64,000 nucleotides of DNA from an uncultured Candidatus Peribacteria bacterium (GTDB taxonomy: Bacteria; Patescibacteriota; Gracilibacteria; Peribacterales; Peribacteraceae): positions 35,428 through 99,427 of the forward strand of contig CAZKPW010000002.1 of NCBI GenBank assembly GCA_964554785.1, written 5' to 3'. The notes below the pieces were generated by a model. It was not told the origin of the DNA. It saw only the letters and a program-made list of their open reading frames with translations, and made no database searches. The position numbers and the translations under genes were made by a program. The first letter of the stretch is position 1; each line of letters opens with the position of its first letter. Positions 7,401 to 62,250 of this stretch are shown here, in pieces.

Positions 7401-8469
7401 CAGCAGCGATCTTGAACCGAAAATGCTTGCCGCATCATTTGGCGAAACCATTCTTGGACCGCAGTATAAGCCCGAAAACGTTCATCTTGGCTGGGCCGTG
7501 GATGCCACCGAATACGAAACGGGATCCATGGATATGCGTGTCACGTCGCTGGTGCTTGATTGTTTGGCGCACTCACAACGCCGCGGTGGAAAAGAGATGA
7601 TTAAAACATTCTTGGAAAGTAATCGCATTCTTGCACGCGAAACTGCAGAGCAGCCGGGCGGCGAATGGACCATCACGCTTCCTACGGGAGTCTTTAAGGC
7701 TCAGAAGAGAAAGCTGGAACAATTCTTGGCGTGCTTTAAATATTTTGGATTCGAAATTATCCCCGCAGCCAGCGGCAAAGTACGCTGCAGCGAAAAAGAT
7801 CCCGACGGCGATTCCTTTGAAGTGAATGTGTTTACGGCTCGACGCATCGGCGATCCCGCCATCCGTCACAACACGCCGTGGGAAACGCTCCCCAGAGATA
7901 TCCGTGAAGGACTCGATTTCCGCAGGGCACGCACCAAGGGGGAGGAAAAGAAAAAGAAGAAGACATCGTCCGCGGAAGAAAATCCCGTCTACTACGACAG
8001 CTTCGTTTTGGAATCGGTCGACGGGCCCGTGCATAATGTGTCGTATGCGGGAGATACCGCTGCCGACGAAAGAAAGCAGCAACTTAAAATTCGCCGCGAA
8101 CTTTTGCGCCGCAGCACGCCGGCCGTTCGTCTCTTATTGCAGAGACACGCGACGTTGGAATCCGTTCCCGCGGAGGTATGGCACACGTTAACGCCGGATC
8201 AAATATTTTTGACCGATGCAGTAAGCGATACGCCGAAGGCAGTACGCGACATCTACATGCATGCCATCATTGCAGAGTGTCCGGACATGTCGCATGCCGC
8301 GGAGTACTTGTCGGGAGTTAATAACGGGCAAACAAAAGCGATGATTGTGGATTGTCACGAAGCGAAAGGCAGATACTTCGTGTTCGCCGGCCCCGATGGA
8401 AATCCTTCGGGAGAAAAATATTATGTTCTTCGCAAGAACGGCAAGAAGAAGCCGAATGGCGATCAGTAA
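4402..8469 (+). CDS. SNF2/DEAD-like superfamily-2 helicase fused to a C-terminal class-I methyltransferase-like module (1355 aa)
   Basis: Helicase motif I GGKTGSGKTGS (5434..5466) and DEAH box IDEAHRAKN (5782..5793). SNF2-style IRIASHPYAV (6433..6462). Motif VI QLFGRFPRPGQ (6895..6927). Downstream is a Rossmann-like IADDGAGTFGF (7330..7362) followed by SSDLEP and MRVTSLVLDCL, resembling SAM-MTase motifs I, II and III. Confidence 0.8.
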   Translation: MSTIEAETLLRHLDEQAALLSVEYTEHSSVIAEIQVRLRRVIGERVLESPDDCADLCLEMDEELNRILPARQSRKSTDTFWVGGVDLSYNDAQHIRKQVDRIRGQIEKIIQRVSGWEMERMNRIRQLAAQRSGKEIGVDPSTQTEEEILHAIPDSTKRALRHLVEEWQLDAGLIYQLLADLHPGRFRTADDEHVGLLSDELGKCSNLGKSFAIPDLPPEFLTRPDISWFREILFNARRDQLLSLFVKEGFHAVQEPIEEEIKEITAREKQEFIQAGTTEERQIVRQEYALKRQFAHALLRYFREVEELPVPHMLRTTIRGRQYPDRQQKVAAYETLRMGGRLFNGGKTGSGKTGSIIYTIAQGMEEGTFKKSLIQCPACILSEWRLALSDDPEHGYFQSGALEAGDVVFIDGPPDERPEQWDNAANAKIVVIGIELTRGSTLDIPHKDLLQDLNADFYAIDEAHRAKNTKKKAIINGDTSVRHSPFTEDELFENGMVIEHNGEAAIPRRTTTDMSNIYEVSRRSPYRVFASATVVSNTTDDLVAPTLCLNAEPDEYHSSAKPLPHRLICFERFLEESGLPQDRDILRTVTSTVPVERNFALTWEDIPSLRRDIALGGRECPRRFLPHFYRPPREACVPTPDYPPPKIIRFPLSVAEQGLNDDVRGEDRSVFEKMQALIRIASHPYAVSGHPETGSTMLRHATNILNEWFQNDVNHAVVVSPLFAQGMTRPGEHHPSASVFSFLEQMYAEQGVTVFALDGRESSHRVMKTPSSLSGRSLTKTQQIIERFALSPKGILVVQKDTIAVGLNEFARAGIGHVVSMGYSWTTSEMDQLFGRFPRPGQTSEVDINVLLAEGFVAKMHDQAVIKNGCNEIFLTGRIPTPEQLRMYHDKPSMQPISSLVKTPRQEFTELTRLMAGNGRKFIANGQNADRFVELYNANWEESYNGNVLRSVAGIAQARLRHMRSVTHNGQEKTMRIADDGAGTFGFHRTMTHVPNLDIHSSDLEPKMLAASFGETILGPQYKPENVHLGWAVDATEYETGSMDMRVTSLVLDCLAHSQRRGGKEMIKTFLESNRILARETAEQPGGEWTITLPTGVFKAQKRKLEQFLACFKYFGFEIIPAASGKVRCSEKDPDGDSFEVNVFTARRIGDPAIRHNTPWETLPRDIREGLDFRRARTKGEEKKKKKTSSAEENPVYYDSFVLESVDGPVHNVSYAGDTAADERKQQLKIRRELLRRSTPAVRLLLQRHATLESVPAEVWHTLTPDQIFLTDAVSDTPKAVRDIYMHAIIAECPDMSHAAEYLSGVNNGQTKAMIVDCHEAKGRYFVFAGPDGNPSGEKYYVLRKNGKKKPNGDQ

Positions 8470-21708: not shown

Positions 21709-21783
21709 TGGCTCCCTGACTTGGATTCGAACCAAGAACCCTCTCGTTAACAGCGAGATGCTCTACCATTGAGCTATCAGGGA
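21709..21783 (-). tRNA. tRNA-Asn (anticodon GTT), CCA encoded
   Basis: Folded by hand. Acceptor TCCCTGA/TCAGGGA, D-stem GCTC/GAGC, anticodon stem TCTCG/CGAGA with loop CTGTTAA, T-stem CTTGG/CCAAG with loop TTCGAAT, discriminator G, then CCA. Total 75 nt. Confidence 0.95.
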
Positions 21784-27680: not shown

Positions 27681-29543
27681 TTAGACTTCTCCTGCCACTT
27701 CAATATCCGCAGGTCCGCCGCTTACCACGGCTTTAATGCGCCGTACTCCTGCAGACGAGCTTTCTTCTTTTTGAATTTTGAAAGTGCCCAGTACTCCGGT
27801 GTGTGACACATGCGGACCTCCACAGATCTCTTTGGAAAAGACATCACCATCGCCGATCTTTCCCGTGCCCGCCGTTTTGCTGTCCTGCTTTCCCATGACA
27901 TACACTTTCACCTCACTGCCGTACCGATCATCAAACACGCCGATGGCACCTTCATTCTTTGCGCCATCAACGGTGGTCATGTGGTACCCAATCGGAAGAT
28001 CCGCTTGGATAGCTTCATTGACCAGTTGTTCGACTTCGGCAATTTGTTCCGGTGTCATCTTGTCTTCGTAATTGAAATCAAAACGTAAACGTTCCGCAGT
28101 CACATTGCTTCCTTTCTGTCCGATGTGATTGCCAAGCACGCGATGCAGTGCTGCATTCAAAAGATGTGTGGCCGTGTGGAGCTTGGTTGTTTCTGCGGAG
28201 TTATCGGCAAGTCCTCCTTTAAACTTCTGTTCAGCCCCTGCTCTACTAAGCGCTTGATGTGCTTCGAATGCAGATGTAAATCCTGCCTCATCCACCGTGA
28301 GCCCCTGTTCGGCAGCCATTTCTTTGGTGACTTCAAACGGGAAGCCGTAGGTGTCGTATAAGTGGAATGCGGTGATGCCATCAATCTCTTTTCCTTCGAG
28401 CGAAGCAGTCACATTCGAAAACCGTTTCAGCCCTTCCTGTAGCGTTTTTCCGAACTGTTGCTCTTCGTGACTGAGGGTATCGCGGATCTCTTTTTCTTTG
28501 GTTTTCAGGTGACCGTACACATGGCCATACTGTGCGATAACTTCTTCGGCAATGGTTGGTGTGAACTGACCCGTGTGCTCAATGCCAAGCGTACGAGCGG
28601 AACGAATCGCGCGACGAATAATGCGACGCAGAATATACGCCTGATCCACATTTCCGGGTTTTACACCGTCAGCAATGATGAATGTTGCAGCCTTGAGGTG
28701 ATCAACAATAATGCGCACATGCTTTACGTCATCCGTCCCGGTAACTGGTAACTGGTAACTGGTAACTCGTCTCATAATCGGCATCATCCTGTCCGTCTCA
28801 TAGACATTGCTCACGCCTTGCAGCACGGCAGCAACTCTCTCGAGTCCCATCCCGGTATCGACGTTTTGTTGTGAGAGAGGTTTGAAAGTCCCATCCTCTT
28901 TTTTGTTGTACTGCATGAACACATCATTCCAAATTTCCATCCAGTTTGGATCGTCGGTCGCGGGGTTACTTCCCGGTGGCGGGAGTTCACTTTTTCCAAC
29001 CCAGTAGAACATTTCGGTATCCGGTCCGCAGGGTCCGGTCATGCCTGCCGGCCCCCACCAGTTTTTTGCTTTCGGTAAAAAGCCTATACGTTCGCGCGGT
29101 ACGCCGCACTTCTCCCAAATGGCAGCGGACTCTTCATCGCGCGGAGCATCGGCGTCTCCTTCAAAACAGGTGACCGCAAATTTTTCGATCGGGATTTCGA
29201 GTACGTTGATGAGAAATTCAAAGCTCATTTGTATCGCTCCTTCTTTAAAGTAATCACCTAAACTCCAGTTTCCCATCATTTCAAAGAGCGTGAGGTGTGA
29301 ACTGTCACCCACTTCGTCAATATCGCCGGTTCGTACGCAACGTTGTGCATCGGCCAGCCTTTTACCCATGGGATGCTGTTCGCCCATCAAATACGGAACA
29401 AGGGGGTGCATGCCGGCTGTGGTAAAGAGGACAGTCGGGTCATTTTCGGGAACAAGGGGGGCTCCGGGAATGACTGCATGGCTCTTAGATGCGAAAAAGT
29501 CGAGGTATGCTTGGCGGAGTTCGTCTGTGGTGAGATTCTTCAT
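27681..29543 (-). CDS. alaS: alanine--tRNA ligase, short form without C-Ala domain
   Basis: Start at MKNLTTDELRQAYLDFFASKSH. FTTAGMHP. Editing-domain motifs HTATHLL and CGGPHV. The protein ends about 50 aa after CGGPHV. Confidence 0.93.
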   Translation of the reverse strand: MKNLTTDELRQAYLDFFASKSHAVIPGAPLVPENDPTVLFTTAGMHPLVPYLMGEQHPMGKRLADAQRCVRTGDIDEVGDSSHLTLFEMMGNWSLGDYFKEGAIQMSFEFLINVLEIPIEKFAVTCFEGDADAPRDEESAAIWEKCGVPRERIGFLPKAKNWWGPAGMTGPCGPDTEMFYWVGKSELPPPGSNPATDDPNWMEIWNDVFMQYNKKEDGTFKPLSQQNVDTGMGLERVAAVLQGVSNVYETDRMMPIMRRVTSYQLPVTGTDDVKHVRIIVDHLKAATFIIADGVKPGNVDQAYILRRIIRRAIRSARTLGIEHTGQFTPTIAEEVIAQYGHVYGHLKTKEKEIRDTLSHEEQQFGKTLQEGLKRFSNVTASLEGKEIDGITAFHLYDTYGFPFEVTKEMAAEQGLTVDEAGFTSAFEAHQALSRAGAEQKFKGGLADNSAETTKLHTATHLLNAALHRVLGNHIGQKGSNVTAERLRFDFNYEDKMTPEQIAEVEQLVNEAIQADLPIGYHMTTVDGAKNEGAIGVFDDRYGSEVKVYVMGKQDSKTAGTGKIGDGDVFSKEICGGPHVSHTGVLGTFKIQKEESSSAGVRRIKAVVSGGPADIEVAGEV

Positions 29544-29617
29544 AGTAGCGGCAGTGTACAACGTTTTAGGCTCCGTCGAGAAGATACGTTTTGAGGCTCG
29601 CATATTTTTGGTTTTTT

Positions 29618-29626
29618 TGGTATAAT
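29618..29626 (+). promoter_or_regulatory. extended -10 promoter element (TGGTATAAT)
   Basis: TGgTATAAT lies 28 nt upstream of the ATG at 29654, in the divergent alaS / kinase spacer. Confidence 0.4.
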
Positions 29627-29653
29627 AGAGAGAAAAATTCACATACATACCAC

Positions 29654-37347: not shown

Positions 37348-39399
37348 TCATACAGTAACAAGATATGCCCCTTGTTTATTTTGAGAAGTAAAGCGTTGGT
37401 TAATTGCAGAAAAATTGTTCTCACGCATATGCAAAGCCAAACTTAATAGCGATGCACGAACAATACCTGCCTGCTGATCAGGGTAGAAAAAATTTTGGCA
37501 AGTCACGATATATTTCACTGCTAGATAATCATCAATTGAGCCACTCAGTTTTTCCATGATTTCTACACATGCCTGGCGACACTGGATGCTAGTGTATACC
37601 GCGAGTCGCATGCCTACGGATGAGAGCAGGGCAGGATGTTTTGCTTTCACCTTGTCGTAGCATGCACCCATTAGAATGTCTAAGAATAGCTTTGATAATG
37701 CTTGCTCATCACCTGTCATGCGACAGCAGCCAAAGAGCATAGCTGATTCTAATCTTACAAGATCAAAACATGGATGCCCCGGGCCGCTTAAGGCATAATC
37801 AATAAAATGTGGCTGACGATCGCGCACTAAAATATTTCGCAATTGAACATCACCGTGCACACTCGCACGATTAAGCATGGTGGATGCCCTTTGCATTGCT
37901 TCAGTCCGAAGACAGAATATATCAATCGGCAAACCATCTGAATCAACAAATGACAGCTCAACGCCTCTCCTGAGTGCTTCTTCCACAGATTCTATGCCAA
38001 GCCATGCCTTACTTTCCATATTATTACTGGGCGTTAGACAATTAAGTTCGCTAATTTTTTTAACTGTAAATTCGATAAATTGACGCATATCATGCTCCAT
38101 TTGCGATCGTGCAGTGTCTTGTGCTGAGGGATTGATTTCATCGTATAGAATATTTTCCATCCGAGATTCCAATGTCGGCGCGGGTTCTCCTCGCTGATTA
38201 ATATCTTCAACAACAGAGAAAAGTATTAGAGCATTGCCATTGTGGTGAAATGGAGCAGGGTTGAGCGTGTCATCCCAAGGACGGATATACATTTGGAAGC
38301 GGTTCATTTCATCAGTTACTTCAGCCAGATTCGCAATTTTTGCGATTAACGGAGCTCCAATGTCATCTGGCTTTAAGTGTATAATATGCGCACCAGATCT
38401 TCCGCCTGTCAGTTTTTTTGTTTCCATTCGTGTCAGTTGTACATCGCGAATATTTCGATTTCGCACGATCTGAGCAGTGGCTGCTTGCAGTAGTTGCGTT
38501 TGTTGTAAATTTAATTCAGAGGATGCCATGTGAATGCTGTCCGTGCATGAGAGCGACTTGCTTGCAGTAGCAAGATTAACCAGTTCCACCATTCCGATTC
38601 TTGCGTCGTTTGCGATTGTTGACATTGCAGCACTTGCATTTCCACGACACATTTTGATCTCTTGTGAAATTTCAGCATGTGTAATTGCTAACCCATTTGT
38701 ATCTAGTTTGACGTAGCAGAAGCTCGAAAAGCAGAGAATATTTCTAAGAATTTTCAAATGCTGGTCATCTGGAAAATTACTCCAAAAACTTGCCGCGATA
38801 ATTATACCGCATACTTCATTTGCATGACCTGTAAGTAATTCCTCATAATTCTCTGGTGGTACTGCGGGAAGCGGAAAAAATCCTTTTGTCCTGAGGCGTA
38901 ATTTTGTCGCTTCATAATCGCTTGTAACTCCTAACAGAACCACAGTATTTACCCGTGCATCTTCAGAAATTCGGCCTTCTTCCGGTTGCGCCCTTGTCTC
39001 GACTGCGGGAATTACTATAAGTGTTGTCAGCGGAGGTGTAACAGGGACAGTTGTCGTTTTTATATTTTTCCCATATGGAATTCTTTTAAGATCGGGGGGG
39101 AGGATGAGATTGAGCGCATTACGTGCTTCATCAGACCACTTACGTCCAGTCTCAGCAAGCGCCAGCATTTCACTATATGGGAGTTCTACAGCCGTAAGCA
39201 CTAGATCAAGACGTCGCGCCATTTCAACTGGTCGCAACAGGGATTGTTGGATTGCCTCAACAGCATTGGTCATTGCAGAAAGAGCGGTTGGCGCTCTCGC
39301 TTTTTCTATTGCTCTAACAAAATCGTGATAGCCTGCTTCGAATGCACGAATATCTGGCTGTAGTAGAGGGGCCAGTAATGGGTCATTAATTGAAGTCAC
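37348..39399 (-). CDS. protein with C-terminal kinase-fold (APH / protein-kinase-like phosphotransferase) domain and an unknown N-terminal domain of about 330 aa
   Basis: Gly-rich LTGGRSGAHIIHL, Lys in PLIAKIA, catalytic loop VHGDVQLRNILV (37834..37857), and the DFG-equivalent FIDYALSG. The start lies 2 nt after the ATPase stop. Confidence 0.75.
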   Translation of the reverse strand: MTSINDPLLAPLLQPDIRAFEAGYHDFVRAIEKARAPTALSAMTNAVEAIQQSLLRPVEMARRLDLVLTAVELPYSEMLALAETGRKWSDEARNALNLILPPDLKRIPYGKNIKTTTVPVTPPLTTLIVIPAVETRAQPEEGRISEDARVNTVVLLGVTSDYEATKLRLRTKGFFPLPAVPPENYEELLTGHANEVCGIIIAASFWSNFPDDQHLKILRNILCFSSFCYVKLDTNGLAITHAEISQEIKMCRGNASAAMSTIANDARIGMVELVNLATASKSLSCTDSIHMASSELNLQQTQLLQAATAQIVRNRNIRDVQLTRMETKKLTGGRSGAHIIHLKPDDIGAPLIAKIANLAEVTDEMNRFQMYIRPWDDTLNPAPFHHNGNALILFSVVEDINQRGEPAPTLESRMENILYDEINPSAQDTARSQMEHDMRQFIEFTVKKISELNCLTPSNNMESKAWLGIESVEEALRRGVELSFVDSDGLPIDIFCLRTEAMQRASTMLNRASVHGDVQLRNILVRDRQPHFIDYALSGPGHPCFDLVRLESAMLFGCCRMTGDEQALSKLFLDILMGACYDKVKAKHPALLSSVGMRLAVYTSIQCRQACVEIMEKLSGSIDDYLAVKYIVTCQNFFYPDQQAGIVRASLLSLALHMRENNFSAINQRFTSQNKQGAYLVTV

Positions 39400-39401
39400 T
39401 A

Positions 39402-41285
39402 CTAACTCATGGAAAGCAGATCGTGATATTTTTCTTGTCGAAGCATAAAAGCTTTTGCACCTCCTTCTAGAATGCTTAAGATGTCACCCTTCATCTCATC
39501 AATTGAACCTGTTTTCGGGACTGCGGCAAGCATCGGATTTTCCATATCCATCACTACGACCTTATCCGCCTCTCCCAATACAGGAATATTTGCATTATGT
39601 GTTACGAAGATTAACTGACGTTGGATTTTAAGAGAACGAATTTGGTCGACAAGAGTTGTATAAATAAAGCGGTTATCCAAGTCATCCTCAGGTTGATCAA
39701 AGATAAGTGGATAGTCCGCAGGCCTCATAATAAGTGGGAGAAGCGCAGTCGCCATTTGACCACTCGAAAGTTGGCTGATCGACTTACTAATGGCACCGTC
39801 ATACAGAGTTATCTCAAGTTGGTCTTCCGGTATAACACCTTCAAGCTGGTAAAGATCGGGCACATCGAATAAATGCGTGATTAGTCGTGACATTTGTCCT
39901 AGATCACGATTCAGTAAATCAGTGAGTCTTTGAGATTCACCAGTTTCGACAATATCGATAAGATCCGCTGCGCGTACTTTTTCTGCCAGATCATGCACGA
40001 TTTCTTCTTGCCCACGCAGACCAGAGCCACTCAGGAGATGTAGAAGTAGTTCGACATAAGCTCCAGAGCGATTGCCGCGATCAATTGCCAATACCACTTG
40101 ATCACCACAACGATCGTTAATCTTTTGTGCCTCTGCTGTGCGCAATCCATAAATTTCATCATTAATCTGCGCGATTCGCTCGCGGAATTCATTGCGTTGA
40201 ATCAACAGGTTTTGCACTTCTTTTTCCATTAGCGTCAGTTGTTCTTGAAGTCGTAAACGTTGTGCAATCCCTTGCTTGAGAGCATCTTCCTGCTTCAGAC
40301 TCTCATTCACTGTCTGAGCATCTTGTAGTAATGTGTAATATCGAGTGTTTTTCTGCTCATATATAGATGCGAGTTGGGCGAGAGGTGCTTGCAATGATTT
40401 TTTAGTTTGCTCCACGATTGCTTGATTATTCTGCGAAAGGAAGGCTTGAAATTCGCGAAGTCCCTTGATGAGCTGTTCTGCTTCCAGCTCTTGTGCGACG
40501 TGCTCATCAAGCATGGACAAATCAATCGTGTCCATGGACGCCATTTGCAATGATGACAAAATAGAATCGCGAGTTTGCAATGCCCTATGAAACTGATCCA
40601 AAATATTCTTACGCTCCAAGAATCCCTGTCGCTCAGTCTCGAGTTCCTCAGGGAGTTTAGGCTGTGTTGATTGAAGCGTAGTGAGCCGCGACTGCAATTC
40701 AGGGAGTCCTTGTATGTCGGCTTTTAGTGCTTCTATATTCGCACGCTGTTCTCGTAATACTGGACCCAGTGAGGCAAGTGATGATGCATTTTTATTTCGC
40801 TCCTTATTAAGTTCATCAATGGTCGTTTTGTGTGGTCGATCGATTAAATCGAGTCGTCGCTCATTATGTTCTGCGATCTGTTGCAGATCACCTTGTGAGT
40901 AAATCTCCACTTGGTCCAAAATACTTACATCGGCAATTTCTTGTACACCTTGACGATAGATGCGTGGAGGAGTGAGACAATCGCGTTCGATCGAAAGCTC
41001 TTCTTTTCCAGTCAGCGTTTCTTCCATGACAATGCATTGTGCCATGCCTTCCCCAAGGGTGGCTTTAATCAAGCCATGTTGTGCTGAGGAATCGGAATTA
41101 CTCGTTTCCAAAAGAGCTTCCACTCGCTTTGGATCGCAGTTGAATGCAAATCGAATTGTTTCTATCACGGTTGATTTACATGTTCCGCGTGCACCAATTA
41201 TGCAAGTCAGCCCCGGTGCAAAGCTAATGGGCGCATTTTGCAGGAAGCCTGCATTTGTTTGAAGTGAAGCTATCCGAATGGCCAT
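39402..41285 (-). CDS. SMC/ABC-type coiled-coil ATPase (627 aa)
   Basis: P-loop GARGTCKST (41167..41196), with Cys where Gly is expected before Lys. Long heptad-rich middle region. ABC signature LSSGQ (39756..39770). Walker B/D-loop LIFDQPEDDLDN (39675..39701). H-loop FVTHNANIPV. Confidence 0.8.
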   Translation of the reverse strand: MAIRIASLQTNAGFLQNAPISFAPGLTCIIGARGTCKSTVIETIRFAFNCDPKRVEALLETSNSDSSAQHGLIKATLGEGMAQCIVMEETLTGKEELSIERDCLTPPRIYRQGVQEIADVSILDQVEIYSQGDLQQIAEHNERRLDLIDRPHKTTIDELNKERNKNASSLASLGPVLREQRANIEALKADIQGLPELQSRLTTLQSTQPKLPEELETERQGFLERKNILDQFHRALQTRDSILSSLQMASMDTIDLSMLDEHVAQELEAEQLIKGLREFQAFLSQNNQAIVEQTKKSLQAPLAQLASIYEQKNTRYYTLLQDAQTVNESLKQEDALKQGIAQRLRLQEQLTLMEKEVQNLLIQRNEFRERIAQINDEIYGLRTAEAQKINDRCGDQVVLAIDRGNRSGAYVELLLHLLSGSGLRGQEEIVHDLAEKVRAADLIDIVETGESQRLTDLLNRDLGQMSRLITHLFDVPDLYQLEGVIPEDQLEITLYDGAISKSISQLSSGQMATALLPLIMRPADYPLIFDQPEDDLDNRFIYTTLVDQIRSLKIQRQLIFVTHNANIPVLGEADKVVVMDMENPMLAAVPKTGSIDEMKGDILSILEGGAKAFMLRQEKYHDLLSMS

Positions 41286-49137: not shown

Positions 49138-49551
49138 GGGGATGACAGGCTTCGACAGCGTGATTCTGGATATGTGTCGCCTCGATCCGGGATGGCAACG
49201 GTTCCCGATACCCACTTGTTGCAAAAACAACTGCAGCTAAACCTGCTACGGCTCGCCTTGAGAAGGGTCTCCGTTTCGCTCAGTCTCTGAGCGGAATGCG
49301 TTCCTTCGCTTTCGCAGCCTAAGTTTCCCTTTAGCGGAAACACGCTTTACCTTCTATCCTCACTAAAAGGATAAGGCGTTATCAGTGAGGTGGGATCAGT
49401 GTCTGACAGTGCACTGCTCCGACATCCCTCTGTCATCCTCACACTCTATCCTTGTTTCTTCCTAAGGAACTGTGAGTAACGGAAGATTCATGATCGTACT
49501 GGCACCATGTTCACACGTTGGACCCCGGTTCAATTCCGGGCATCTCCACCA
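49138..49551 (+). ncRNA. ssrA: tmRNA (SsrA)
   Basis: 5-prime GGGGATGACAGGCTTCGACAGCG. 3-prime tRNA-like end CCCGG-TTCAATT-CCGGG CATCTCC A CCA. The acceptor pairing includes the G3:U alanine identity pair. The internal tag frame ends ..SFAFAA-TAA (49221..49322). Confidence 0.95.
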
Positions 49552-50570: not shown

Positions 50571-53500
50571 TTAGAGTGTGGTTTGCAATGCCTGCAGCGC
50601 TTCAATTTGTTCGCGCAGTTTCTTCTGCGTTGTATCGATTTCTTCCAAAATCGCGAGTTGCTGTTCTATGTTTCCGAGTTCGGCTTTCATGTTGTCTTTC
50701 TGTGCAATGTCCGCTTGTACGGTTGTAACGGTTGCTTCTGCACGTGTCTGCAGTTCATGTATTGCTTGAGCAATTTCCGTAATTTTCACGGTCGCTTTTT
50801 TTGTATGATCAATGACAATTTCTTGCGTGGTCAGTCCCTGAATACTCATGGATTGTTGCAGCAGTGTGGTGGACCATTCTGTCAGCTGAGGATCATCATT
50901 TTCCGGGTTCATACTGTCCAGCTTGCGGATCATGGCACTCAAATCCTGATACGTGGATTGTAAGCGTTGAGCAATTCCTTCTTCCAGCACGGAAATTTGC
51001 GGAGCCAGGGTATCTCTCTTTGCGGTCATGGTAAGAGTCTGGTCCGTTACGTTTACCGAATCGACAATACTCACGGTCACAACAGCGGGAGCAATGGGTG
51101 CGGGTATAGCCCCCAGTTCCACATTTTGGAAAGATTCGTTGCTTAGTGAAGCGGGAGTCGCTGCTGGTTCCGGAGCGTCTTGCTCTGCATGTTCCACAGC
51201 CGGAACAGGTTCTTCTATTGGAGGCGTTTGCAATGCTGTAGACGAGACAGACGGATCCGCAGGGGTGGATGTGGATACAGATTCCCCTTCCTTTTGAGTC
51301 ATGATTTTTTGCAGATTTCCTAGTAACAAGGAAATTGCTTTTTCAAAATCAGCAGATTTGTCCTGCTGCTCCAATGAATTGTTGTTCGTATTCAATTGGT
51401 AACAACTCATGAGTGCTTCACAGATTTGCAAAATACTTTCGATATAATTTTCGTGCGCTTCCGCAGTGAATTGGCCGGTTTGCTGCAGAGAGCGTGCCGC
51501 CTCTGCAAGAATTGGATGTATTTGAATCAATGTGAATTCTGAAAATAAACGGCTGCCTGTCGTATTGTGGGTATTATATCTCTGCATTTTTTGCGAAAGA
51601 GGACCGGTCATTTCCATGCACGCAGAAATAGCTTTCAAAAATTCCTCCGCTTCATCTCCTTTCAGCTTCTCGCCGCTTCCTGCCGGCACGTACGTCCGCA
51701 GATCTTCCAAAAGAAGATTCGCACCTCGAACATAGTGTTGAGGCACTTGGCTGCTTGCAACGTTGCCAGTTCTTTTATCGACATGCATAAGAGCTACAGT
51801 CCCTCTTAACTTAAAAAGACGTAAGAATTCAACGGCAAATGCATCGAATGCCGTGGCACTTTCCGGTGAAGACTGCAAAGTACTCTGGCGATCTTTTACA
51901 TAGGTATATATTTTCTGAATCAGAAGGCGCGTTGCAAAATCGCCGACGTATTTAATTTTTCTTTCTGCAAAATCACTCACGGAAGCGACTGCTTCCGCAG
52001 CTTTTGCTGCAAACGGATTGAGTGTTTCTACGGAGACCGCAGCATCTGCAGACAGTTCAGGGGCAGTAACCGGTTCTTCAATAGGCAAGGAAATCGGCGC
52101 TACTTCTACAGACATGCGTGCGCTTTGTGCATTGCCAGCGGGAAGAAGACTGGAGAATGCGGTGTCATTCACAGTCGCGACAGTGTCGGATGTGCTGCCG
52201 TTATTTCCTTGCAGTGTGGCATTGTGGTTTCTTGCCACAAAGACCTCTTCTGCAATGACCGGCGTCACAGTCGGCCGCACCTCATATGCAACGACTGCGT
52301 CGACAGGAGTGTCACTTCCATTTTTTTCCGGTTGCGCTCCTGTCCTTCTTACTGCGGGCATTTCCATATATTCAATATACGATTTAATTTCTAAATACGG
52401 ACGCACGAGCTTCATGTTCCCGTTGCAACGCTCGTTTACTTTGTTTGCCGCATTTGCAAGGAATGTCCCATCCGTATAAAAGTTGGTTCCGTCTTTTCCA
52501 CCCATATCTTTCCAGAATTGATCCAGTACACTTGCTTCTTCCGATGTCATTCTCCATAGGGGCATTGCGTCGGGTTCCCTGCGCGCAGAAAAATGTTTCC
52601 ACTTTTTCGGCATAAGAATGGCTTCGGCAATAATGACGCTATTGCCGGTTTCCATATCAATATCTAGATACGGAATCTCTGAAAGATCCAGATTGGCAGT
52701 TTTCGCCATATTTTGAAGATCGTTTCGCTGGATACGACCGGGCAGCACATGTTTAATCCATTCGGATGTAAGTACAATTTTTTCGCACTCTTCCAAATTT
52801 TCAGCAGATGTATCGTTTACCATCAGTTCATTGATTTTTTGGATAAGGGCGAATTGCACAGTCGGAACATCCGGATATTCATTTTCCCGAACAGATTCAA
52901 TCGCCATACTCAATGCTAGGATAAAATTGCCAAATAAATCCGCTCCTTTGGCACTCACGCGTTCCGAACCGGATACAAGCGGTGTTTTTTTAAGGGATTT
53001 AATACCCACAAATTTTCCATCTGGCGAGGTGGGGATGAGTACATTCAAGCGGTCGACGTTGGTTGTGTGAAACTGTTTCATGACCAGTGCCACATACCGT
53101 GCCGGCATGAGTAATTCAATGTGCGTGGCTGAGTTGACGTTCTCTGTCGGCAGAGCGTCGCGTACGCGTTGACGGATGGTGTCGCAAATGCCGTCGAATT
53201 GCAGGACAATCTGTTTCCACACTCTTTCATCCAGATACTGTGATTCGGTGGTACTCATTTGCGGTTTTAATGCGTGTATTCTTGCATGTGCTTTTTTTGC
53301 CGCAGTGCGTAACTCCCCATAGGTTTTCCACTCACCCCCTTTCAAGACTTCCAGAGTTTGGAGAATATTGCCCATAAGATTTCGCGTTTTATCTTTGTCT
53401 ACACTCTGCTTTCTTGTACGAGCGCCTGTGGGGAAAAGTGTCACGATATTTTCAACAACTGCGTTGCAGGCCGTCTTGATCATTTCTTCAACTTCTTTTC

Positions 53501-53603
53501 TGGGAATACCTTCCGGTAATTCTGTGGCATCAGTCATTTCCGGGAAACATTTTTCGTGTTGTGGTTTGTCGCTCATAAAAAAGTGAAAGAAGGAAAGTTC
53601 CAA
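50571..53603 (-). CDS. large hypothetical protein (about 1000 aa) with C-terminal coiled coil
   Basis: Uninterrupted ORF with Ala/Pro/Ser-rich linkers and a heptad-rich C-terminus (..AELGNIEQQLAILEEIDTTQKKLREQIEALQALQ). No catalytic motif recognised. The start may be Met11 (53573). Confidence 0.7.
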   Translation of the reverse strand: MELSFFHFFMSDKPQHEKCFPEMTDATELPEGIPRKEVEEMIKTACNAVVENIVTLFPTGARTRKQSVDKDKTRNLMGNILQTLEVLKGGEWKTYGELRTAAKKAHARIHALKPQMSTTESQYLDERVWKQIVLQFDGICDTIRQRVRDALPTENVNSATHIELLMPARYVALVMKQFHTTNVDRLNVLIPTSPDGKFVGIKSLKKTPLVSGSERVSAKGADLFGNFILALSMAIESVRENEYPDVPTVQFALIQKINELMVNDTSAENLEECEKIVLTSEWIKHVLPGRIQRNDLQNMAKTANLDLSEIPYLDIDMETGNSVIIAEAILMPKKWKHFSARREPDAMPLWRMTSEEASVLDQFWKDMGGKDGTNFYTDGTFLANAANKVNERCNGNMKLVRPYLEIKSYIEYMEMPAVRRTGAQPEKNGSDTPVDAVVAYEVRPTVTPVIAEEVFVARNHNATLQGNNGSTSDTVATVNDTAFSSLLPAGNAQSARMSVEVAPISLPIEEPVTAPELSADAAVSVETLNPFAAKAAEAVASVSDFAERKIKYVGDFATRLLIQKIYTYVKDRQSTLQSSPESATAFDAFAVEFLRLFKLRGTVALMHVDKRTGNVASSQVPQHYVRGANLLLEDLRTYVPAGSGEKLKGDEAEEFLKAISACMEMTGPLSQKMQRYNTHNTTGSRLFSEFTLIQIHPILAEAARSLQQTGQFTAEAHENYIESILQICEALMSCYQLNTNNNSLEQQDKSADFEKAISLLLGNLQKIMTQKEGESVSTSTPADPSVSSTALQTPPIEEPVPAVEHAEQDAPEPAATPASLSNESFQNVELGAIPAPIAPAVVTVSIVDSVNVTDQTLTMTAKRDTLAPQISVLEEGIAQRLQSTYQDLSAMIRKLDSMNPENDDPQLTEWSTTLLQQSMSIQGLTTQEIVIDHTKKATVKITEIAQAIHELQTRAEATVTTVQADIAQKDNMKAELGNIEQQLAILEEIDTTQKKLREQIEALQALQTTL

Positions 53604-57469: not shown

Positions 57470-57868
57470 TTACGCCTTCAGCACAATCTTCATGACCCAA
57501 TGCGCTGCGCCAAAGATGAGCGCAAGAACAAGCCACCCACCCACTCCGCCATTGAAGCTAAGCTGGACCAGATCCGGATTCATCTGGTCTGTTATTTTCA
57601 GAATGAGCCAGAGGAAGAGCCAGTTCATCAGAATAGTGGCAATGAGTCCGAAGATCAGGTGAAACGGTGCGAAGATAATATGAAGCACCGGACGCACAAG
57701 AAGGTTCATTAATGTGAGTAAAGATCCGACTATCACATACGCAGCGAGCCCTCCATTCAGGAAAAAATACTGATCTAGTTTTGTGCTCAATAACCAGACA
57801 AGGCCTACGGTAAGCACCCATTGAAAGGCGATTTTTGTAGGCCAGGAAAATCCGCGAGATTCTGCCAT
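57470..57868 (-). CDS. DUF360 / phage holin family 4-like membrane protein
   Basis: Four helices. LLVRPVLHIIFAPFHLIFGLIATILMNWL is typical of the family. Its ATG overlaps the ileS stop (TAATG). Confidence 0.65.
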   Translation of the reverse strand: MAESRGFSWPTKIAFQWVLTVGLVWLLSTKLDQYFFLNGGLAAYVIVGSLLTLMNLLVRPVLHIIFAPFHLIFGLIATILMNWLFLWLILKITDQMNPDLVQLSFNGGVGGWLVLALIFGAAHWVMKIVLKA

Positions 57869-60800
57869 TATAGTTTGTGGAAGCGAATAGTTGCCGTCCT
57901 TTCCTCTATATTTACACTTGCACTATTTTCTGTTGAAGAACCGAGTGTGGATTTCGTTTCGCTCGCTATGAATGCGCCATGAATGGCCATGACATCATCC
58001 ATGTCGACAATGTCCAACATGATGGTATCGCTATGGGCCAGACCTGCGTCTTTACGAAGTTTCTGAACGGAGCGGATAATATCGCGTGCGTATCCTTCGG
58101 CAATAAGTTCCGGCGTGAGGGTGGTTTCCATGCTGACAACTACGCCGCCTTCTGCAGCTATGTCGGCTCCTTCGCGTCCGTTATAAATAATTTTTACTTC
58201 GTCCGGACTGAGTTCGGCATCCAGAATGCGAACGGTCCCGTTGGCATCAACACTGAATTCACCGGCCTTTCCTGCTTGAATGAGCTCTTGGACGCGCTTT
58301 CCAAAGCGAGGTCCTGTTTTCCGTGCATCAACCATGGCAATACTTTGCCCCAAGCTGCCTGCATCTTCGGTAAAGTTGATATTCTTCACATTTAATTCTT
58401 GGCGGAGAAGCTGCAAATCTTCGTCTGCAAGTTCATTCGCTTGTATAAGGGACACTGGCAGTGCGATTGTGGCAGATACGAGTGGTTGGCGGACTTTGAT
58501 CTTCTTTTCCGAACGAATTTTATTTCCGAGTCGCACAATCAGGCGAAGGACATGGTTTTTCCGAATAAGTGCCAGCTCTTCTGCGCGTAGCTCCTGTGTT
58601 TTCGGCCAGTCGGTCAGGTGGATGGATCCATGCTTTGCCGGGCTAAGGTTTAGATAGATGGCATCTGTTATAAACGGACAGAATGGCGCGAGAACTTGGC
58701 TGATAGTTAAAAGAACCTCGTGCAATGTTGTCAGAGCGGCCTGGCGGTCTGCATCATTGTCCTCGGCATAGGCATCTTGTTCGCCTGCTGATTTTCCGGC
58801 GAATCTGCGACGAGAGAGGCGGATGTACCAGTTCGTGAGTGCATCAATGGTGCTACCGAGTTCGTTGCAGGTAGCAGAGAGATCATACTGGTCGAGTTCG
58901 TGCGTCATGCGGTTCACCAGATCCTGTACCTCTGCGCGGATCCATTTATCGAGCGGGTGATTGGATGCTATTGGCTTACTGGAGGGCTCAAACCCTGCTG
59001 CGTTTGCGTAGGTGACAAAGAAGCTATAACTGTTCCAGAGCGGCAGCAGAACATTGCGCACTGTTTCTTCCACCACTTTGGCGGAGAAGCGCAAATCTTC
59101 GGCACGAACGGCAGGGGAACTCATCAATGAAAAACGCAGTGCATCGGCCCCATGCTGTTCTATGACTTCCACGGGATCGGGATAGTTCTTCAGGCGCTTG
59201 CTCATTTTGCGACCGTCTTCCGCCAAGACCGTACCATTCACAATACAATGGATGAATGCAGGTTTTTTAAAGAGCGCCGCAGAAAGCACGGTGAGCGTAT
59301 AGAACCATCCGCGTGTTTGGTCGATACCTTCTGCAATGAAATCTGCAGGAAAACCCTTTGGTAATTGGTAATTCAGAATTGGTAATTCAGAATTATTCGT
59401 ATTTCGTATTTCGTGCTTCGTATTTCCCAATCCCTCATCTGCACTATTCATCTCAAAGGGAAAATGCGATTGGGCGTACGGCATCGAGCCGCTTTCAAAC
59501 CAGCAATCGAGCACATCGGGGATGCGTTTCAGGACGGGGTGCAGAGGGAGTTCGATAGTTTCCGTGTTCTTTGGCAGCATACCGACGGCATCTCTGTACG
59601 GACGATTTTCATGGACAATACGCATTGCCTGAATAAAGCCGCCATGCGCTACCAGTAATACTTTTTTCCCTGCATATTTTTTACGAAGCATAGTCGCCGC
59701 TTCTTCTGCACGTTCAAGGAATTGCTCAAATGTCTCACCTTTTTCCGGATTGTGATGGTTCATGGCAGGGTTAATTCCCTCAAAAGCCGGAGCATACGTC
59801 GACGTAATGTGATCAATTTTCTGTCCTGTCCACGTACCCAAATCACGCTCACGCAGAACATCCAACATGTCTTCATGGGGAATATCCAAAGCGTCCGCCA
59901 AGTACTGTGCGGTTTCCACTGCGCGCGTCAGATGTGAGGAGATGATGACGTCAAATTGGCCTTTCTTGAGCGTTTTTGCCAATGCTGCAGCCTGCGCGTG
60001 TCCTTCGTCATTCAGCGGCGCATTAATCTCGCTGCCCTGCACAATGCGCTCTTTGTTCAAATCGGTTTCGCCATGGCGCACGAGCGTCAGATGCACGGTG
60101 TCCTCGGACGGGGGTCCCATCCAGGTAATGTCATCAATCACATCTTTATGCAGATCCATTTGCGCCTGCTTTTTGTGGTCCCAGAAATAAGTGACCGGAG
60201 TTGCAAAACTGGCCATTTCGCGTTCGACCACCTTGAAAGGATCTTCTTTGGTGAAGTAATGATTCACGTTATAGAGCGGATCGCCGTGTGTGACGACTAC
60301 AATGTGTTCGCTTCTGTGTCTTGGAAGAACATCATCAAAAAAATCATGAATGCGGTCTTTCACGCTGTCCCACGATTCCATACCCGGGAGGTGATACACA
60401 CTCTGCGGCATAGCAATTTCCTTTTTGTCCTGGCGCAGTTGTTTGGATACATCCAAATCATGCACAGGAATGGTTTTTCCTTCATGTTCGCCCATGTTCG
60501 TTTCCCGCAGGCGTTCATCAATGACAATGCGTGCGCCCGTGGCATCGGCAATTGCTTGTGCGGTTTGCTGGGTACGCTGCAGAGGAGAGCAATAAATAAT
60601 AGTCGGAACATGCTGACTTTCATTGATGAATGCCCCCGCCTTTTTTGCCTGCTCTTTGCCCAGTTCCGTGAGCGGCGTACCCGGAATAACACTCTGATAC
60701 ATAGGCACCAAATTTCCTTCGCTCTGCCCGTGGCGTACAACGGTGACCTTCGTGAAACGAATGAGCGTATGTGCCATAAGATCATCGCGGCTGGTGATGA

Positions 60801-62250
60801 CTTCGGTGTCGCGCATATTGTCCGTACGCCAAATGGGAAGGGGGGTGCCCCAGAAGCGATTGCGGGAAATGGCCCAATCGCGGGCATTTTCCAGCCAATT
60901 CCCGAAACGTCCGTCCCGGAGATGTGCAGGAACCCATTCCGTTTCTTTATTCACCAACAACATGTCCTGTTTTACTTTTTCCACGCTTACAAACCAGGAA
61001 CTGGTTGCGTAGTTCAGAAGCGGGGAATCGCAGCGCCAGCAATGAGGATAGCTGTGCATGAAGCTTTCGGTGCGGAAGAGCTTTCCGTGTTCTTTCAGCC
61101 ACGCTGCCACCATTTTATCGCCGCTCTGGTGATCATCTTTGGGTTTGGCGTGTTTTCCTGCAAAGTCTGTGACTTCTTTTTTAAAGATGCCATCCAATCC
61201 CACATGTTGAATAAGGGGCATTTTTTCACGTTGTCCCAAATAGAAGTCATCTTCACCAAAGGCGGGTGCTTCGTGCACAATGCCCGATCCTGCATCGGTT
61301 GTGACCAGATCGGATGCGACCACGCGGAATCCTCTTTCCTTCAATTCTTCCACATAGTAGGGGAAGAGCGGTTTATAAGTTTTTCCAATCAGATCGGCAG
61401 CCGGAATATCGGCTATAATTTCATGATCAATATTTTTGAACACAGATGTCACTAAATCTTTTGCCACAATGTAAAAACCGCCTTCACTTTTCACCTTTGC
61501 ATAGGTGATTGCAGGATTGACCGCTGCCAAAACGTTTCCGGGAAGCGTCCAGCCTGTAGTGGTCCAGATGATTAAAAATGTTCCCGGTTCATCATTCAAT
61601 TCCAGTTTTACGTAGAGGGAATAATCTTGAATATCTTTATACCCCTGCGTGACTTCAAAGTTACTGATGGGCGTGCCGCAACGCGGACAGACATGCATGG
61701 GTTTGTGACCTTCATAGATAAGGCCCTTTTCGTATAATGATTTAAACACCCACCAAATAGACTCCATATAATCCGGGTCCATGGTGCGGTAATCATGATC
61801 CATATCGACAAAACGACCGACTCGTTCCACGGTTGTGCGCCATTCTTTCGTATAGCGTTGCACAATGCCGCGACATAAATCATTGAAGACACTCACGCCC
61901 ATATCCTCAATATCTTTCTTTCCTTTAATGTTGTGCTCTTTCTCTATTTCATACTCGATAGGAAGCCCGTGACAATCCCAACCAAAACGACGTTCTACCC
62001 TCTTTCCTTTCATCGTCTGATAACGAGGGATGACATCTTTGATGGTTCCGGCCAACAGATGGCCGTAGTGGGGGAGTCCCGTTGCAAACGGAGGTCCGTC
62101 AAAAAAGCTGAATGATTCGGCTCCTTCGCGGTTTTTAATGCTGCGCTTGAAGATATCTTCATCTTTCCAGTAAGAGAGAATCCCGTGTTCAAGTTGCGGG
62201 AAGGATTGCCGAGGGTCGACGGGATCAAACATAGAAAATGAGGAAAACAA
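57868..62250 (-). CDS. ileS: isoleucine--tRNA ligase (type 2) with an inserted pair of histidine-phosphatase domains
   Basis: HIGH region PHYGHLLAG, WDCHGLPIE, WAISRNRFWGTPLPIW, CWFESGSMPYAQ, GIDQTRGWFYTL, KMSKRL. Residues about 497-905 contain two RHG...HG histidine-phosphatase modules. The start may be Met7 (62232). Confidence 0.93.
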   Translation of the reverse strand: MFSSFSMFDPVDPRQSFPQLEHGILSYWKDEDIFKRSIKNREGAESFSFFDGPPFATGLPHYGHLLAGTIKDVIPRYQTMKGKRVERRFGWDCHGLPIEYEIEKEHNIKGKKDIEDMGVSVFNDLCRGIVQRYTKEWRTTVERVGRFVDMDHDYRTMDPDYMESIWWVFKSLYEKGLIYEGHKPMHVCPRCGTPISNFEVTQGYKDIQDYSLYVKLELNDEPGTFLIIWTTTGWTLPGNVLAAVNPAITYAKVKSEGGFYIVAKDLVTSVFKNIDHEIIADIPAADLIGKTYKPLFPYYVEELKERGFRVVASDLVTTDAGSGIVHEAPAFGEDDFYLGQREKMPLIQHVGLDGIFKKEVTDFAGKHAKPKDDHQSGDKMVAAWLKEHGKLFRTESFMHSYPHCWRCDSPLLNYATSSWFVSVEKVKQDMLLVNKETEWVPAHLRDGRFGNWLENARDWAISRNRFWGTPLPIWRTDNMRDTEVITSRDDLMAHTLIRFTKVTVVRHGQSEGNLVPMYQSVIPGTPLTELGKEQAKKAGAFINESQHVPTIIYCSPLQRTQQTAQAIADATGARIVIDERLRETNMGEHEGKTIPVHDLDVSKQLRQDKKEIAMPQSVYHLPGMESWDSVKDRIHDFFDDVLPRHRSEHIVVVTHGDPLYNVNHYFTKEDPFKVVEREMASFATPVTYFWDHKKQAQMDLHKDVIDDITWMGPPSEDTVHLTLVRHGETDLNKERIVQGSEINAPLNDEGHAQAAALAKTLKKGQFDVIISSHLTRAVETAQYLADALDIPHEDMLDVLRERDLGTWTGQKIDHITSTYAPAFEGINPAMNHHNPEKGETFEQFLERAEEAATMLRKKYAGKKVLLVAHGGFIQAMRIVHENRPYRDAVGMLPKNTETIELPLHPVLKRIPDVLDCWFESGSMPYAQSHFPFEMNSADEGLGNTKHEIRNTNNSELPILNYQLPKGFPADFIAEGIDQTRGWFYTLTVLSAALFKKPAFIHCIVNGTVLAEDGRKMSKRLKNYPDPVEVIEQHGADALRFSLMSSPAVRAEDLRFSAKVVEETVRNVLLPLWNSYSFFVTYANAAGFEPSSKPIASNHPLDKWIRAEVQDLVNRMTHELDQYDLSATCNELGSTIDALTNWYIRLSRRRFAGKSAGEQDAYAEDNDADRQAALTTLHEVLLTISQVLAPFCPFITDAIYLNLSPAKHGSIHLTDWPKTQELRAEELALIRKNHVLRLIVRLGNKIRSEKKIKVRQPLVSATIALPVSLIQANELADEDLQLLRQELNVKNINFTEDAGSLGQSIAMVDARKTGPRFGKRVQELIQAGKAGEFSVDANGTVRILDAELSPDEVKIIYNGREGADIAAEGGVVVSMETTLTPELIAEGYARDIIRSVQKLRKDAGLAHSDTIMLDIVDMDDVMAIHGAFIASETKSTLGSSTENSASVNIEERTATIRFHKL

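Follow-up and report, generated by a model that had tools for sequence, protein, structure and literature searches.

Two histidine phosphatases inserted in the CP3 domain of a Peribacteria isoleucyl-tRNA synthetase and their possible coupling to the enzyme

We analysed a 64,000-nucleotide stretch of DNA (hereafter the window) from an uncultured Candidatus Peribacteria bacterium (GenBank assembly GCA_964554785.1, contig CAZKPW010000002.1, positions 35,428 to 99,427), in which the ileS gene encodes an isoleucyl-tRNA synthetase (IleRS) that carries two complete histidine-phosphatase domains within its connective peptide 3 (CP3). Both modules keep their catalytic residues across a large clade of relatives, related modules occur at several other positions of IleRS in Patescibacteria, and a free-standing phosphatase of the same kind lies upstream of ileS in a sister lineage. 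We read the modules as active phosphatases coupled to IleRS that would act, probably, on nucleotide-type substrates; taken whole, with its proposed mechanism, this reading is plausible and falls a little short of probable. What is new is a complete phosphatase inserted in CP3, which recurs at four sites of IleRS and has a counterpart in an operon partner.

The gene and its parts are laid out as follows, in window positions, with residues numbered throughout from an upstream TTG at 62250:

57868 to 62250, minus strand: open reading frame (ORF) of 1460 amino acids, counted from the upstream TTG.
57868 to 62232, minus strand: ileS coding sequence, a type-2, eukaryote-like IleRS with two inserted domains; stop codon included, probable ATG at 62232.
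60829 to 62232, minus strand: first half of the Rossmann fold, CP core, CP1 editing domain and CP2 up to WGTPLPIW (residues 7-474); contains HYGH.
60763 to 60828, minus strand: CP3 segment a, the retained start of CP3, RTDNMRDTEVITSRDDLMAHTL (residues 475-496), placed by alignment to solved IleRS.
60181 to 60762, minus strand: module 1 (M1), histidine phosphatase at site S1 (residues 497-690).
60100 to 60180, minus strand: CP3 segment b, DHKKQAQMDLHKDVIDDITWMGPPSED, between the modules (residues 691-717), placed by alignment to the yeast and human enzymes.
59542 to 60099, minus strand: module 2 (M2), histidine phosphatase at site S2 (residues 718-903).
58951 to 59541, minus strand: end of CP3, second half of the Rossmann fold with KMSKR, and stem-contact fold (residues 904-1100).
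59359 to 59451, minus strand: loop expansion at site S4 (residues 934-964), lineage-specific and predicted to be disordered.
57886 to 58950, minus strand: anticodon-binding domain (residues 1101-1257) and C-terminal DUF5915 domain (residues 1281-1455), from Pfam.

The reading frame is unbroken over the whole ORF, and GC content over the insert is ordinary (0.47-0.53). Homologues open with MFDPVDP, which makes the ATG at residue 7 (window 62232) the probable true start. The synthetase motifs lie on the minus strand at 62059-62070 (HYGH), 60829-60852 (WGTPLPIW), 59497-59520 (PDVLDCWF) and 59194-59208 (KMSKR), and the RHG triplets of the phosphatases at 60727-60735 (module 1) and 60070-60078 (module 2); the original prediction, made from the letters of the DNA, had described an intact IleRS with histidine-phosphatase domains in one continuous frame, and all of its motifs and positions were reproduced. 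Pfam searches of the ORF returned tRNA-synt_1 (E 7e-133, split), His_Phos_1 in two stretches, Anticodon_1 and DUF5915, and the NCBIfam equivalog model for ileS was passed (TIGR00392, 840.4 bits against a cutoff of 621.4). HYGH corresponds to residues 61-64 and KMSKR to residues 1015-1019, and H61, Y62, G63, H64, K1015, M1016, S1017 and K1018 are invariant among 117 sequences. In the same 117 sequences T230, T231, W234, G323 and H326 of CP1, which carries WTTTGWTLPGN and VHEAPAFGEDD, do not vary, and D334 reaches at least 90% conservation; T230-T231, H326 and D334 are what we take to be editing-site residues. The earlier statement that the synthetase motifs are intact thus holds for HIGH, KMSK and the CP1 residues alike.

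By sequence the enzyme is of type 2: the PDB chains that it matches best are those of eukaryotes, of T. thermophilus and of IleRS2 (E 1e-199 to 4e-230), whereas type-1 IleRS chains match at only about 1e-100, and its C-terminus is DUF5915 and not the type-1 Zn-binding C-terminus (Pfam). With models of the plasmid-borne mupirocin-resistance enzymes (MupA/MupB) it scored 671 and 644 bits, well below the cutoff of 1900. Among enzymes that lack the insert, type-2 IleRS of Spirochaetes come nearest, at about 52% identity. An AlphaFold2 (AF2) model of residues 1-1200 has a predicted local distance difference test score (pLDDT) of 89.0 and a predicted template-modelling score (pTM) of 0.88, with a sole disordered stretch at residues 938-960, and its IleRS core fits type-2 folds (fold-match score TMt 0.84 to 1ILE and 0.82 to 6LDK). 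Residues 904-1100 form the best-conserved IleRS region, with a mean pairwise identity of 0.73.

Beyond WGTPLPIW the protein has about 420 residues where solved eukaryote-type IleRS have about 30 (human 484 to 518, yeast 490 to 519). The extra stretch had been described as a single insertion of about 400 residues, with the two domains in tandem, and here the description needs correcting. When both modules were cut out, residues 687-718 retained and the resulting construct aligned to solved IleRS chains, the inter-module peptide MDLHKDVIDDITW aligned to canonical CP3 (yeast DLHRDVIDKLTI, human DLHRESVDHLTI), as did its flanks, and D699, L700, H701 and D706 of this peptide are invariant in 121 sequences. 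Residues 691-717 are therefore a canonical CP3 peptide, and the modules represent two separate single-domain insertions into two loops of CP3, a small subdomain on the enzyme surface. The host segment, CP3, has been delimited as residues 473-534 in C. albicans and 459-526 in S. cerevisiae; it follows directly on the CP2-3 linker ARDWNVSRNRYWG, part of the pocket that takes up the 3′ end of tRNA and reveromycin A, and the topology of CP3 varies among the Ca, Tt and Sa enzymes (PMC7191050, PMC7955072).

Comparison with an insert-free relative (L049), whose CP3 is intact with two Zn knuckles (WECESC...), places S1 in the loop between the GS..EL helix and the DLH peptide, replaced by M1, and S2 at the second CP3 hairpin or Zn knuckle, replaced by M2. 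The knuckle cysteines are lost in the window IleRS, CP3 segment a being without the first Zn-knuckle cysteines present in L049. The contig that encodes this relative (L049:3051-4760) is labelled Peribacteria and may be mis-binned or come from a truly different lineage; its neighbours upstream resemble ilvD and ilvC on reading of the sequence, which is unusual for Peribacteria. M1 and M2 are 32% identical over 95 residues and were never sisters in 100 bootstraps, so that they are different phosphatases and not the products of a recent duplication. An AF2 model of the CP3-plus-modules construct reached a pLDDT of 92.8 and a pTM of 0.90, with block-mean pLDDT of 87-99 in M1 and high values in M2. 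We hold this anatomy, and selection on the modules as set out below, with high confidence.

More than 120 protein clusters, drawn from NCBI, JGI, ENA and Logan assemblies, have this architecture. The best 120 relatives are all 1277-1654 amino acids long, all contain the IleRS domains together with PF00300, and are 55-81% identical over aligned regions, the nearest homologue being 81% identical at the protein level. Named relatives are Candidatus Peregrinibacteria or Peribacteraceae and include Ca. Peribacter riflensis on closed 1.25-Mb contigs. No description of an IleRS-phosphatase fusion was found in the searchable literature, including the Peribacter genome paper, where the gene is simply annotated ileS (PMC4736985). 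The remark in the original prediction that no aminoacyl-tRNA synthetase with such an insertion was known therefore stands as regards the literature searched, although the architecture is abundant in databases and JGI already names it 'isoleucyl-tRNA synthetase/...phosphoglycerate mutase' ('bisphosphoglycerate-dependent phosphoglycerate mutase').

The complete genome of Ca. P. riflensis encodes exactly one ileS (gene _135, 1470 amino acids), followed by a gene for a 131-amino-acid membrane protein (_134, K08972) in the same synteny as in the window (annotation table, PMC4736985). With one ileS, the insert-bearing enzyme is the only IleRS of this organism, and among its synthetases IleRS alone is inflated: LeuRS has 821 amino acids, ValRS 934, MetRS 506, ArgRS 565, CysRS 494 and AlaRS 617 (PMC4736985). 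The AlaRS of the window (27681-29648, minus strand) is likewise short at 655 amino acids and stops right after tRNA_SAD, its C-terminal part probably missing. No second ileS and no other His_Phos gene lies within the 64-kb window. The idea that the insertion is an artefact, either an assembly chimera or a pseudogene with a canonical ileS elsewhere, had been raised beforehand and is refuted for practical purposes by the number and several sources of the clusters, the closed genomes among them, the single ileS of Ca. P. riflensis, the continuous frame, the invariant motifs, the normal composition and the lack of a second ileS in the window.

A scan for His_Phos_1 (PF00300), proposed in advance as a way to refute the phosphatase assignment, found the domains in two stretches with an E-value of 1.8e-79 (266.4 bits against a cutoff of 21.7). 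The M1 catalytic set (R506, H507, N513, R559, E583 and H655) is invariant in 121 of 121 sequences, with an unusual second-histidine motif, VTH[G/A]DP. The M2 set (R725, H726, N732, R776, E801 and H869) is kept in 119 to 120 of the 121: R725, H726, R776 and E801 are present in 120 and H869 in 119, the exceptions being one gapped row and one sequence with a histidine-to-serine change. That both modules are histidine phosphatases with a full catalytic set, as first noticed, is thus confirmed by Pfam and by the 121-sequence alignment, and the survey of related genomes suggested at the outset found the same architecture in the best 120 relatives, with selection on the catalytic residues. Mean pairwise identity is 0.58 for M1 and 0.44 for M2, alongside 0.57 for the CP1 editing domain and 0.53 for the C-terminal domain. 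This pattern of conservation indicates catalysis and not a decayed scaffold, and because the catalytic set is kept across the clade both modules most likely work as phosphohydrolases. Judged from sequence and predicted fold, they belong to the small PhoE/PspA/CobC-like type and are not phosphoglycerate mutases.

Both modules were modelled with high pLDDT as complete alpha/beta domains, and the fold search returned His_Phos structures only. The best size-normalised matches were PhoE and PspA (TMt 0.78), against 0.62-0.69 for cofactor-dependent phosphoglycerate mutases (dPGMs), and a histidine-family phosphatase of the riboflavin pathway (9MMH) matched with TMt 0.75; all were generic His_Phos matches, and the search pointed to no specific substrate. 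Neither module alone reached any NCBIfam equivalog cutoff. With CobC (TIGR03162, cutoff 162.9) M2 scored 118.6 and M1 77.9, and only the summed two-module segment passed (191.5). M1 and M2 scored 99.7 and 63.5 with dPGM_arch (cutoff 225), 51.3 and 42.3 with TIGR01258 (cutoff 81.7), and 81.3 and 74.7 bits with PspA NF045917 (cutoff 350). The second-best NCBIfam model for both was a bifunctional RNase H/acid phosphatase (NF005567, 92-97 bits against a cutoff of 326).

These scores bear on whether the modules are a moonlighting phosphoglycerate mutase, phosphoserine phosphatase or alpha-ribazole phosphatase, as might be taken from the JGI name, from the two-module CobC score and from the best PDB sequence match of M1, a His_Phos-type phosphoserine phosphatase. 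We consider this very improbable and largely refuted. Ca. P. riflensis has a separate gpmA (223 amino acids, 277.7 bits), its annotation table has no 'ribazole' or 'phosphoserine' entries (PMC4736985), and the single modules stay below the CobC, dPGM and PspA cutoffs. Given the separate gpmA, the missed cutoffs and the poorer fit of dPGM structures, the database label 'phosphoglycerate mutase' is a family name and not a function.

Mapped against the landmarks WGxPxP, DLH, DxWFES and KMSK, the modules of Patescibacteria IleRS occur in one to four copies and at no fewer than four sites:

S1: Peribacteria; L029 (Paceibacterota); L031 (a Patescibacteria single-cell genome); L032 and L073 (Saccharibacteria); L082-L087, L090 and L137.
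S2: Peribacteria; P0132.
S3, after KMSK and before the anticodon-binding domain: L030 ('Gracilibacteria'), P0128, P0130, P0151 and P0204.
S4, between DxWFES and KMSK: P0204 and P0132.

The combinations {S1}, {S1,S2}, {S1,S2,S2}, {S1,S3}, {S2,S4} and {S4,S3} were found, and P0131 has four modules. The insert-bearing loci comprise the window, 33 Peribacteria loci, L029-L032, L073, L082-L087, L090 and L137. Within Peribacteria the two-module form is the majority; a one-module form has M1 only (P0015, L018, L020-L024), and a three-module form has two M2 copies, one after the other, at S2 (P0011, P0031, P0068). Modules at S3 in L030, P0128, P0130 and P0151 are of the M2 type by hidden Markov model (HMM) scores (125-140 bits against 55-76), so that modules of one kind occupy S2 in one lineage and S3 in a different one. 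At S4 the window IleRS has a loop of about 25 extra residues (ADEGLGNTKHEIRNTNNSELPILNYQ) with pLDDT below 50 at residues 938-960; P0011, P0015, P0031 and P0068 lack this loop, and P0204 and P0132 hold a whole His_Phos module there. Two loci with clear Peribacteria- or Patescibacteria-type IleRS (L021, L034) come from bins labelled Kiritimatiellales and Bdellovibrionales, probably through binning errors.

When the insert was searched exhaustively against 1.84 billion representatives, only 15 clusters were found at E <= 1e-30, and the long matches examined were all IleRS; the insert is thus without a close free-standing relative. The best free-standing match of M2 is P0143, an isolated marine sequence without informative relatives. 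A free-standing tandem His_Phos protein was considered as direct donor and rejected, since the inter-module segment is IleRS CP3 and the tandem proteins fall in clades of their own (unsupported). Such free-standing proteins, of about 400-430 amino acids with two tandem His_Phos domains, form a large family (P0129, P0134-P0142 and many others) that appears unrelated to the IleRS modules.

Two insert-free loci, L034 and L035, carry, on the strand of ileS and 1-1.5 kb upstream of it, a His_Phos gene of about 190-206 amino acids; the gene orders are His_Phos, endonuclease/exonuclease/phosphatase-family (EEP) gene, NUDIX, ileS (L034) and His_Phos, HIT, ileS (L035). Both proteins share the M1-like second-histidine motif, VSH[G/A]D[P/T]. 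A metagenome scan with them gave ten best matches of which eight are linked to IleRS, namely a gene directly upstream of ileS in L081 and seven S1 modules within IleRS. The L081 gene (L081:265-827) is broken by a frameshift on a 1.5-kb contig, from a sequencing error or as a pseudogene. The free-standing family comprises about 100 clusters of proteins of about 188 amino acids, its named members being Ca. Moranbacteria, and the gene lies upstream of ileS at nine loci (L034, L035, L081 and L161-L166).

Eight members on long contigs were inspected (L161-L168). The six with 43% or more identity to the L035 protein are all encoded upstream of ileS; L167 (36% identity) has no ileS, with a NUDIX gene 8 nucleotides after His_Phos, and L168 (35% identity) has no ileS association. 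The arrangement persists in L165, where the upstream genes are wholly different, and in L164 and L166, where two or three other genes stand between His_Phos and ileS. A HIT gene separates the two in L162, as in L035, and the cluster in L163 includes a NUDIX gene in 4-nucleotide overlap with the ileS stop; the HIT protein at free-standing loci has a DcpS_C match (Pfam). In Moranbacteria a conserved ORF of about 50 amino acids, with no Pfam match, is found between argS and His_Phos (L161:4783-4935, L162:4833-4988, L163:4842-4994). Genes of the 23S_rRNA_IVP family, four-helix-bundle proteins first met in rRNA intervening sequences, lie directly upstream of ileS in L164 (7465-8025) and L166 (3318-3938).

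Under the M1 HMM this family holds most of the top ranks among free-standing proteins, with modest margins over the M2 HMM. The HMM ranking and the H-[G/A]-D-[P/T] motif favour one group of M1-type inserted and free-standing forms, while neighbour-joining (NJ) bootstraps favour no deep grouping. At insert-bearing loci no free-standing His_Phos copy was found within 6 kb.

Fusion at several sites and a conserved neighbourhood, both specific to IleRS, lead us to read the modules as phosphohydrolases that work with IleRS, and on these grounds of sequence and gene order functional coupling is probable. The nature of the substrate is a more doubtful matter. HIT and NUDIX families cleave dinucleoside polyphosphates and acyl- or amino-adenylates, known side products of synthetases, and mycobacterial MutT1 combines NUDIX and His_Phos chemistry on nucleoside polyphosphates. 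The HIT and NUDIX neighbours, together with the MutT1 precedent, make nucleotide-type substrates our best guess, a class that by analogy is possible, if some way from likely. The guess in the original prediction at a nucleotide by-product such as Ap4A gains circumstantial support from the HIT and NUDIX genes clustered with free-standing M1 relatives upstream of ileS.

On this coupled reading, M1 would belong to an IleRS-associated His_Phos lineage that is a separate gene in Ca. Moranbacteria and fused in Peribacteria and in Gracilibacteria-, Saccharibacteria- and Paceibacterota-type genomes, and fusion would fix the phosphatase at 1:1 stoichiometry beside the catalytic body of IleRS. NUDIX or HIT enzymes would cut diadenosine polyphosphates, Ap(n)A, or acyl-adenylate side products and release nucleoside mono- or diphosphates; the modules would then remove the terminal phosphates of these or related nucleotides, the phosphoryl group passing to His507 and His726 and from there to water. 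We regard as speculative, and somewhat less likely than the substrate class itself, that the modules give IleRS, in addition to its synthetic and editing sites, a third site of catalysis, acting on something that IleRS makes or handles. The versions of such a site that we can envisage, which are no more secure, are clearance of nucleotide side products in relay with NUDIX/HIT or removal of a phosphate that blocks the 3′ end of tRNA-Ile, hard-wired repeatedly at four sites.

Several observations weigh against the coupled reading. HIT or NUDIX genes accompany five of ten free-standing His_Phos loci (L034, L035, L162, L163, L167), and no HIT, NUDIX or EEP gene was found near ileS in the other 78 GTDB ileS loci or in the window; in 80 metagenome ileS loci a search for HIT, NUDIX and EEP gave only two unrelated NUDIX boxes, so that the HIT/NUDIX association is limited to loci with free-standing His_Phos. 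In Ca. P. riflensis, nudH and a HIT gene are located elsewhere and do not adjoin ileS (annotation table, PMC4736985). The His_Phos-ileS neighbourhood comes largely from one lineage, Moranbacteria, and its loci are not independent. In some Patescibacteria (L041, L043, L047, L053, L078) IleRS carries no insert and ileS has no His_Phos gene beside it. The structural papers on IleRS CP3 (PMC7191050, PMC7955072) mention no contact between CP3 and tRNA. Finally, an NJ tree of 244 modules and free-standing domains gave suggestive groupings, but none of the deep ones had more than 0-5% support in 100 NJ bootstraps on 81 sequences; either several captures or a single ancient one, with intragenic duplication and relocation afterwards, would account for the modules.

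Among the rival explanations we place first a housekeeping phosphatase that hitch-hikes on IleRS, then a tRNA-end phosphatase, then a regulatory module. On the first, which we think unlikely, the modules would act on an unrelated phosphate ester (a sugar phosphate, a riboflavin intermediate or another) and would be fused for co-expression or stability only. Their fold and sequence do resemble broad-specificity small phosphatases, 9MMH among them, the plasticity of CP3 among IleRS structures should make it tolerant of insertions, and the lack of nucleotidase and phosphoserine entries in the Peribacter table leaves room for generic phosphatase roles that may be unfilled. It leaves unexplained, however, why IleRS alone among the synthetases is host, why one to four modules occupy four sites of this one host in different lineages, and why the free-standing form stays by ileS despite local changes of gene order.

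A tRNA- or RNA-end phosphatase, which would clear a 3′- or 2′-phosphate, or a pyrophosphate remnant left after NUDIX action, from damaged or toxin-modified tRNA-Ile before charging, seems to us quite improbable. The position of the modules lends it some appeal, CP3 starting right after the linker of the tRNA 3′-end pocket, as do the NUDIX, HIT (DcpS_C) and EEP neighbours of the free-standing form, families that include members acting on nucleic-acid termini, and the rank of the RNase H/acid phosphatase model for both modules. Against this, we know of no branch-1 histidine phosphatase that is an RNA 3′-phosphatase, the structural papers examined give no sign that CP3 faces the acceptor end, and the proposal does not say why tRNA-Ile alone would need repair.

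Least probable of the three is a regulatory or sensor module that binds or slowly turns over a phosphorylated metabolite or phosphoprotein and tunes IleRS, or a phosphohistidine or phosphoprotein phosphatase of the SixA/PGAM5 type. The assembly is predicted as one rigid unit (pTM 0.88-0.90), which is compatible with allostery, and both modules match SixA weakly (28-30 bits), far from its cutoff of 74.5. The full conservation of the proton-donor glutamate and of both histidines favours real turnover, and the free-standing operon partner in Moranbacteria speaks against purely intramolecular allostery.

Known systems offer partial parallels to an IleRS with phosphatases inside it. Type-2 IleRS of known structure (T. 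thermophilus 1ILE; C. albicans 6LDK; S. cerevisiae 7D5C/8WND; P. megaterium IleRS2 8C8U) share the domain order, HIGH and KMSK and the fold (TMt 0.82-0.84), whereas in the window CP3 is interrupted twice by enzymes of about 190 residues and has lost its Zn-knuckle cysteines, features that we found in no solved or described IleRS. The small branch-1 phosphatases (B. stearothermophilus PhoE 1H2E, H. thermophilus PspA 4IJ5/4IJ6, the mycobacterial Rv2419c type and CobC) are like the modules in fold, size and catalytic residues (TMt 0.72-0.78), but are free-standing with assigned substrates; the modules score below their cutoffs, and M1 has the odd motif H-[G/A]-D-P. The NUDIX-His_Phos fusion of mycobacterial MutT1 (NF052459, '8-oxo-(d)GTP phosphatase MutT1') is echoed by the clusters of His_Phos with NUDIX or HIT at ileS, yet the match in the window is partial and weak (27.8 bits against a cutoff of 475), and here the partner is a synthetase with no NUDIX in the same chain. 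Precedents for a second enzyme in the IleRS scaffold are the CP1 editing domain and 'ileS_w_GNAT' (NF040702), with an N-acetyltransferase domain; both differ from the modules in fold, chemistry and insertion site, and the window protein scores 291 against the 'ileS_w_GNAT' cutoff of 1999. The bifunctional RNase H/acid phosphatase (NF005567, Rv2228c type) joins a CobC-like His_Phos domain to a nucleic-acid enzyme, but end to end and not by insertion. Class I synthetases have been noted in the literature as frequent insertion hosts.

Elsewhere in the window we recorded the following features:

57470 to 57868, minus strand: gene for a 132-amino-acid membrane protein, K08972-like, whose start overlaps the ileS stop and which is probably co-transcribed with ileS; four transmembrane segments and a weak Phage_holin_4_2 match.
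49138 to 49551, plus strand: tmRNA gene; its tag peptide, AAKPATARLEKGLRFAQSLSGMRSFAFAA, has 29 residues and is unusually long.
21709 to 21783, minus strand: tRNA-Asn(GTT) gene.
37348 to 39399 and 39402 to 41285, both minus strand: adjacent genes with matches to TCAD9 (ternary-complex-associated domain) and an SMC_N/AAA_21 ATPase, with a conflict- or defence-like look.
4402 to 8469, plus strand (1355 amino acids); 50571 to 53603, minus strand (1010); 9248 to 11305, minus strand (685); and 2778 to 4358, plus strand (526): four large ORFs without a Pfam match at E <= 1e-5, which recall the big extracellular proteins reported for Peribacteria.

Bacterial aminoacyl-tRNA synthetases are usually minimal, and the genomes of Patescibacteria are among the most streamlined. 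Against that background an essential IleRS bears about 400 extra residues of apparently active enzyme, while the other synthetases in a related complete genome are compact. The recurrence of sites, the presence of one to four copies and the upstream gene in a sister lineage together make up a 'Rosetta-stone plus neighbourhood' signal of coupling. The insertion points are also natural permissive sites for domain insertion in a class I synthetase, possibly useful in engineering. If the coupling is true, it would represent a new auxiliary synthetase activity, in by-product clearance or tRNA-end repair, and a new link between IleRS and phosphate-ester metabolism, and would open a practicable way into the physiology of Patescibacteria that have not been cultivated.

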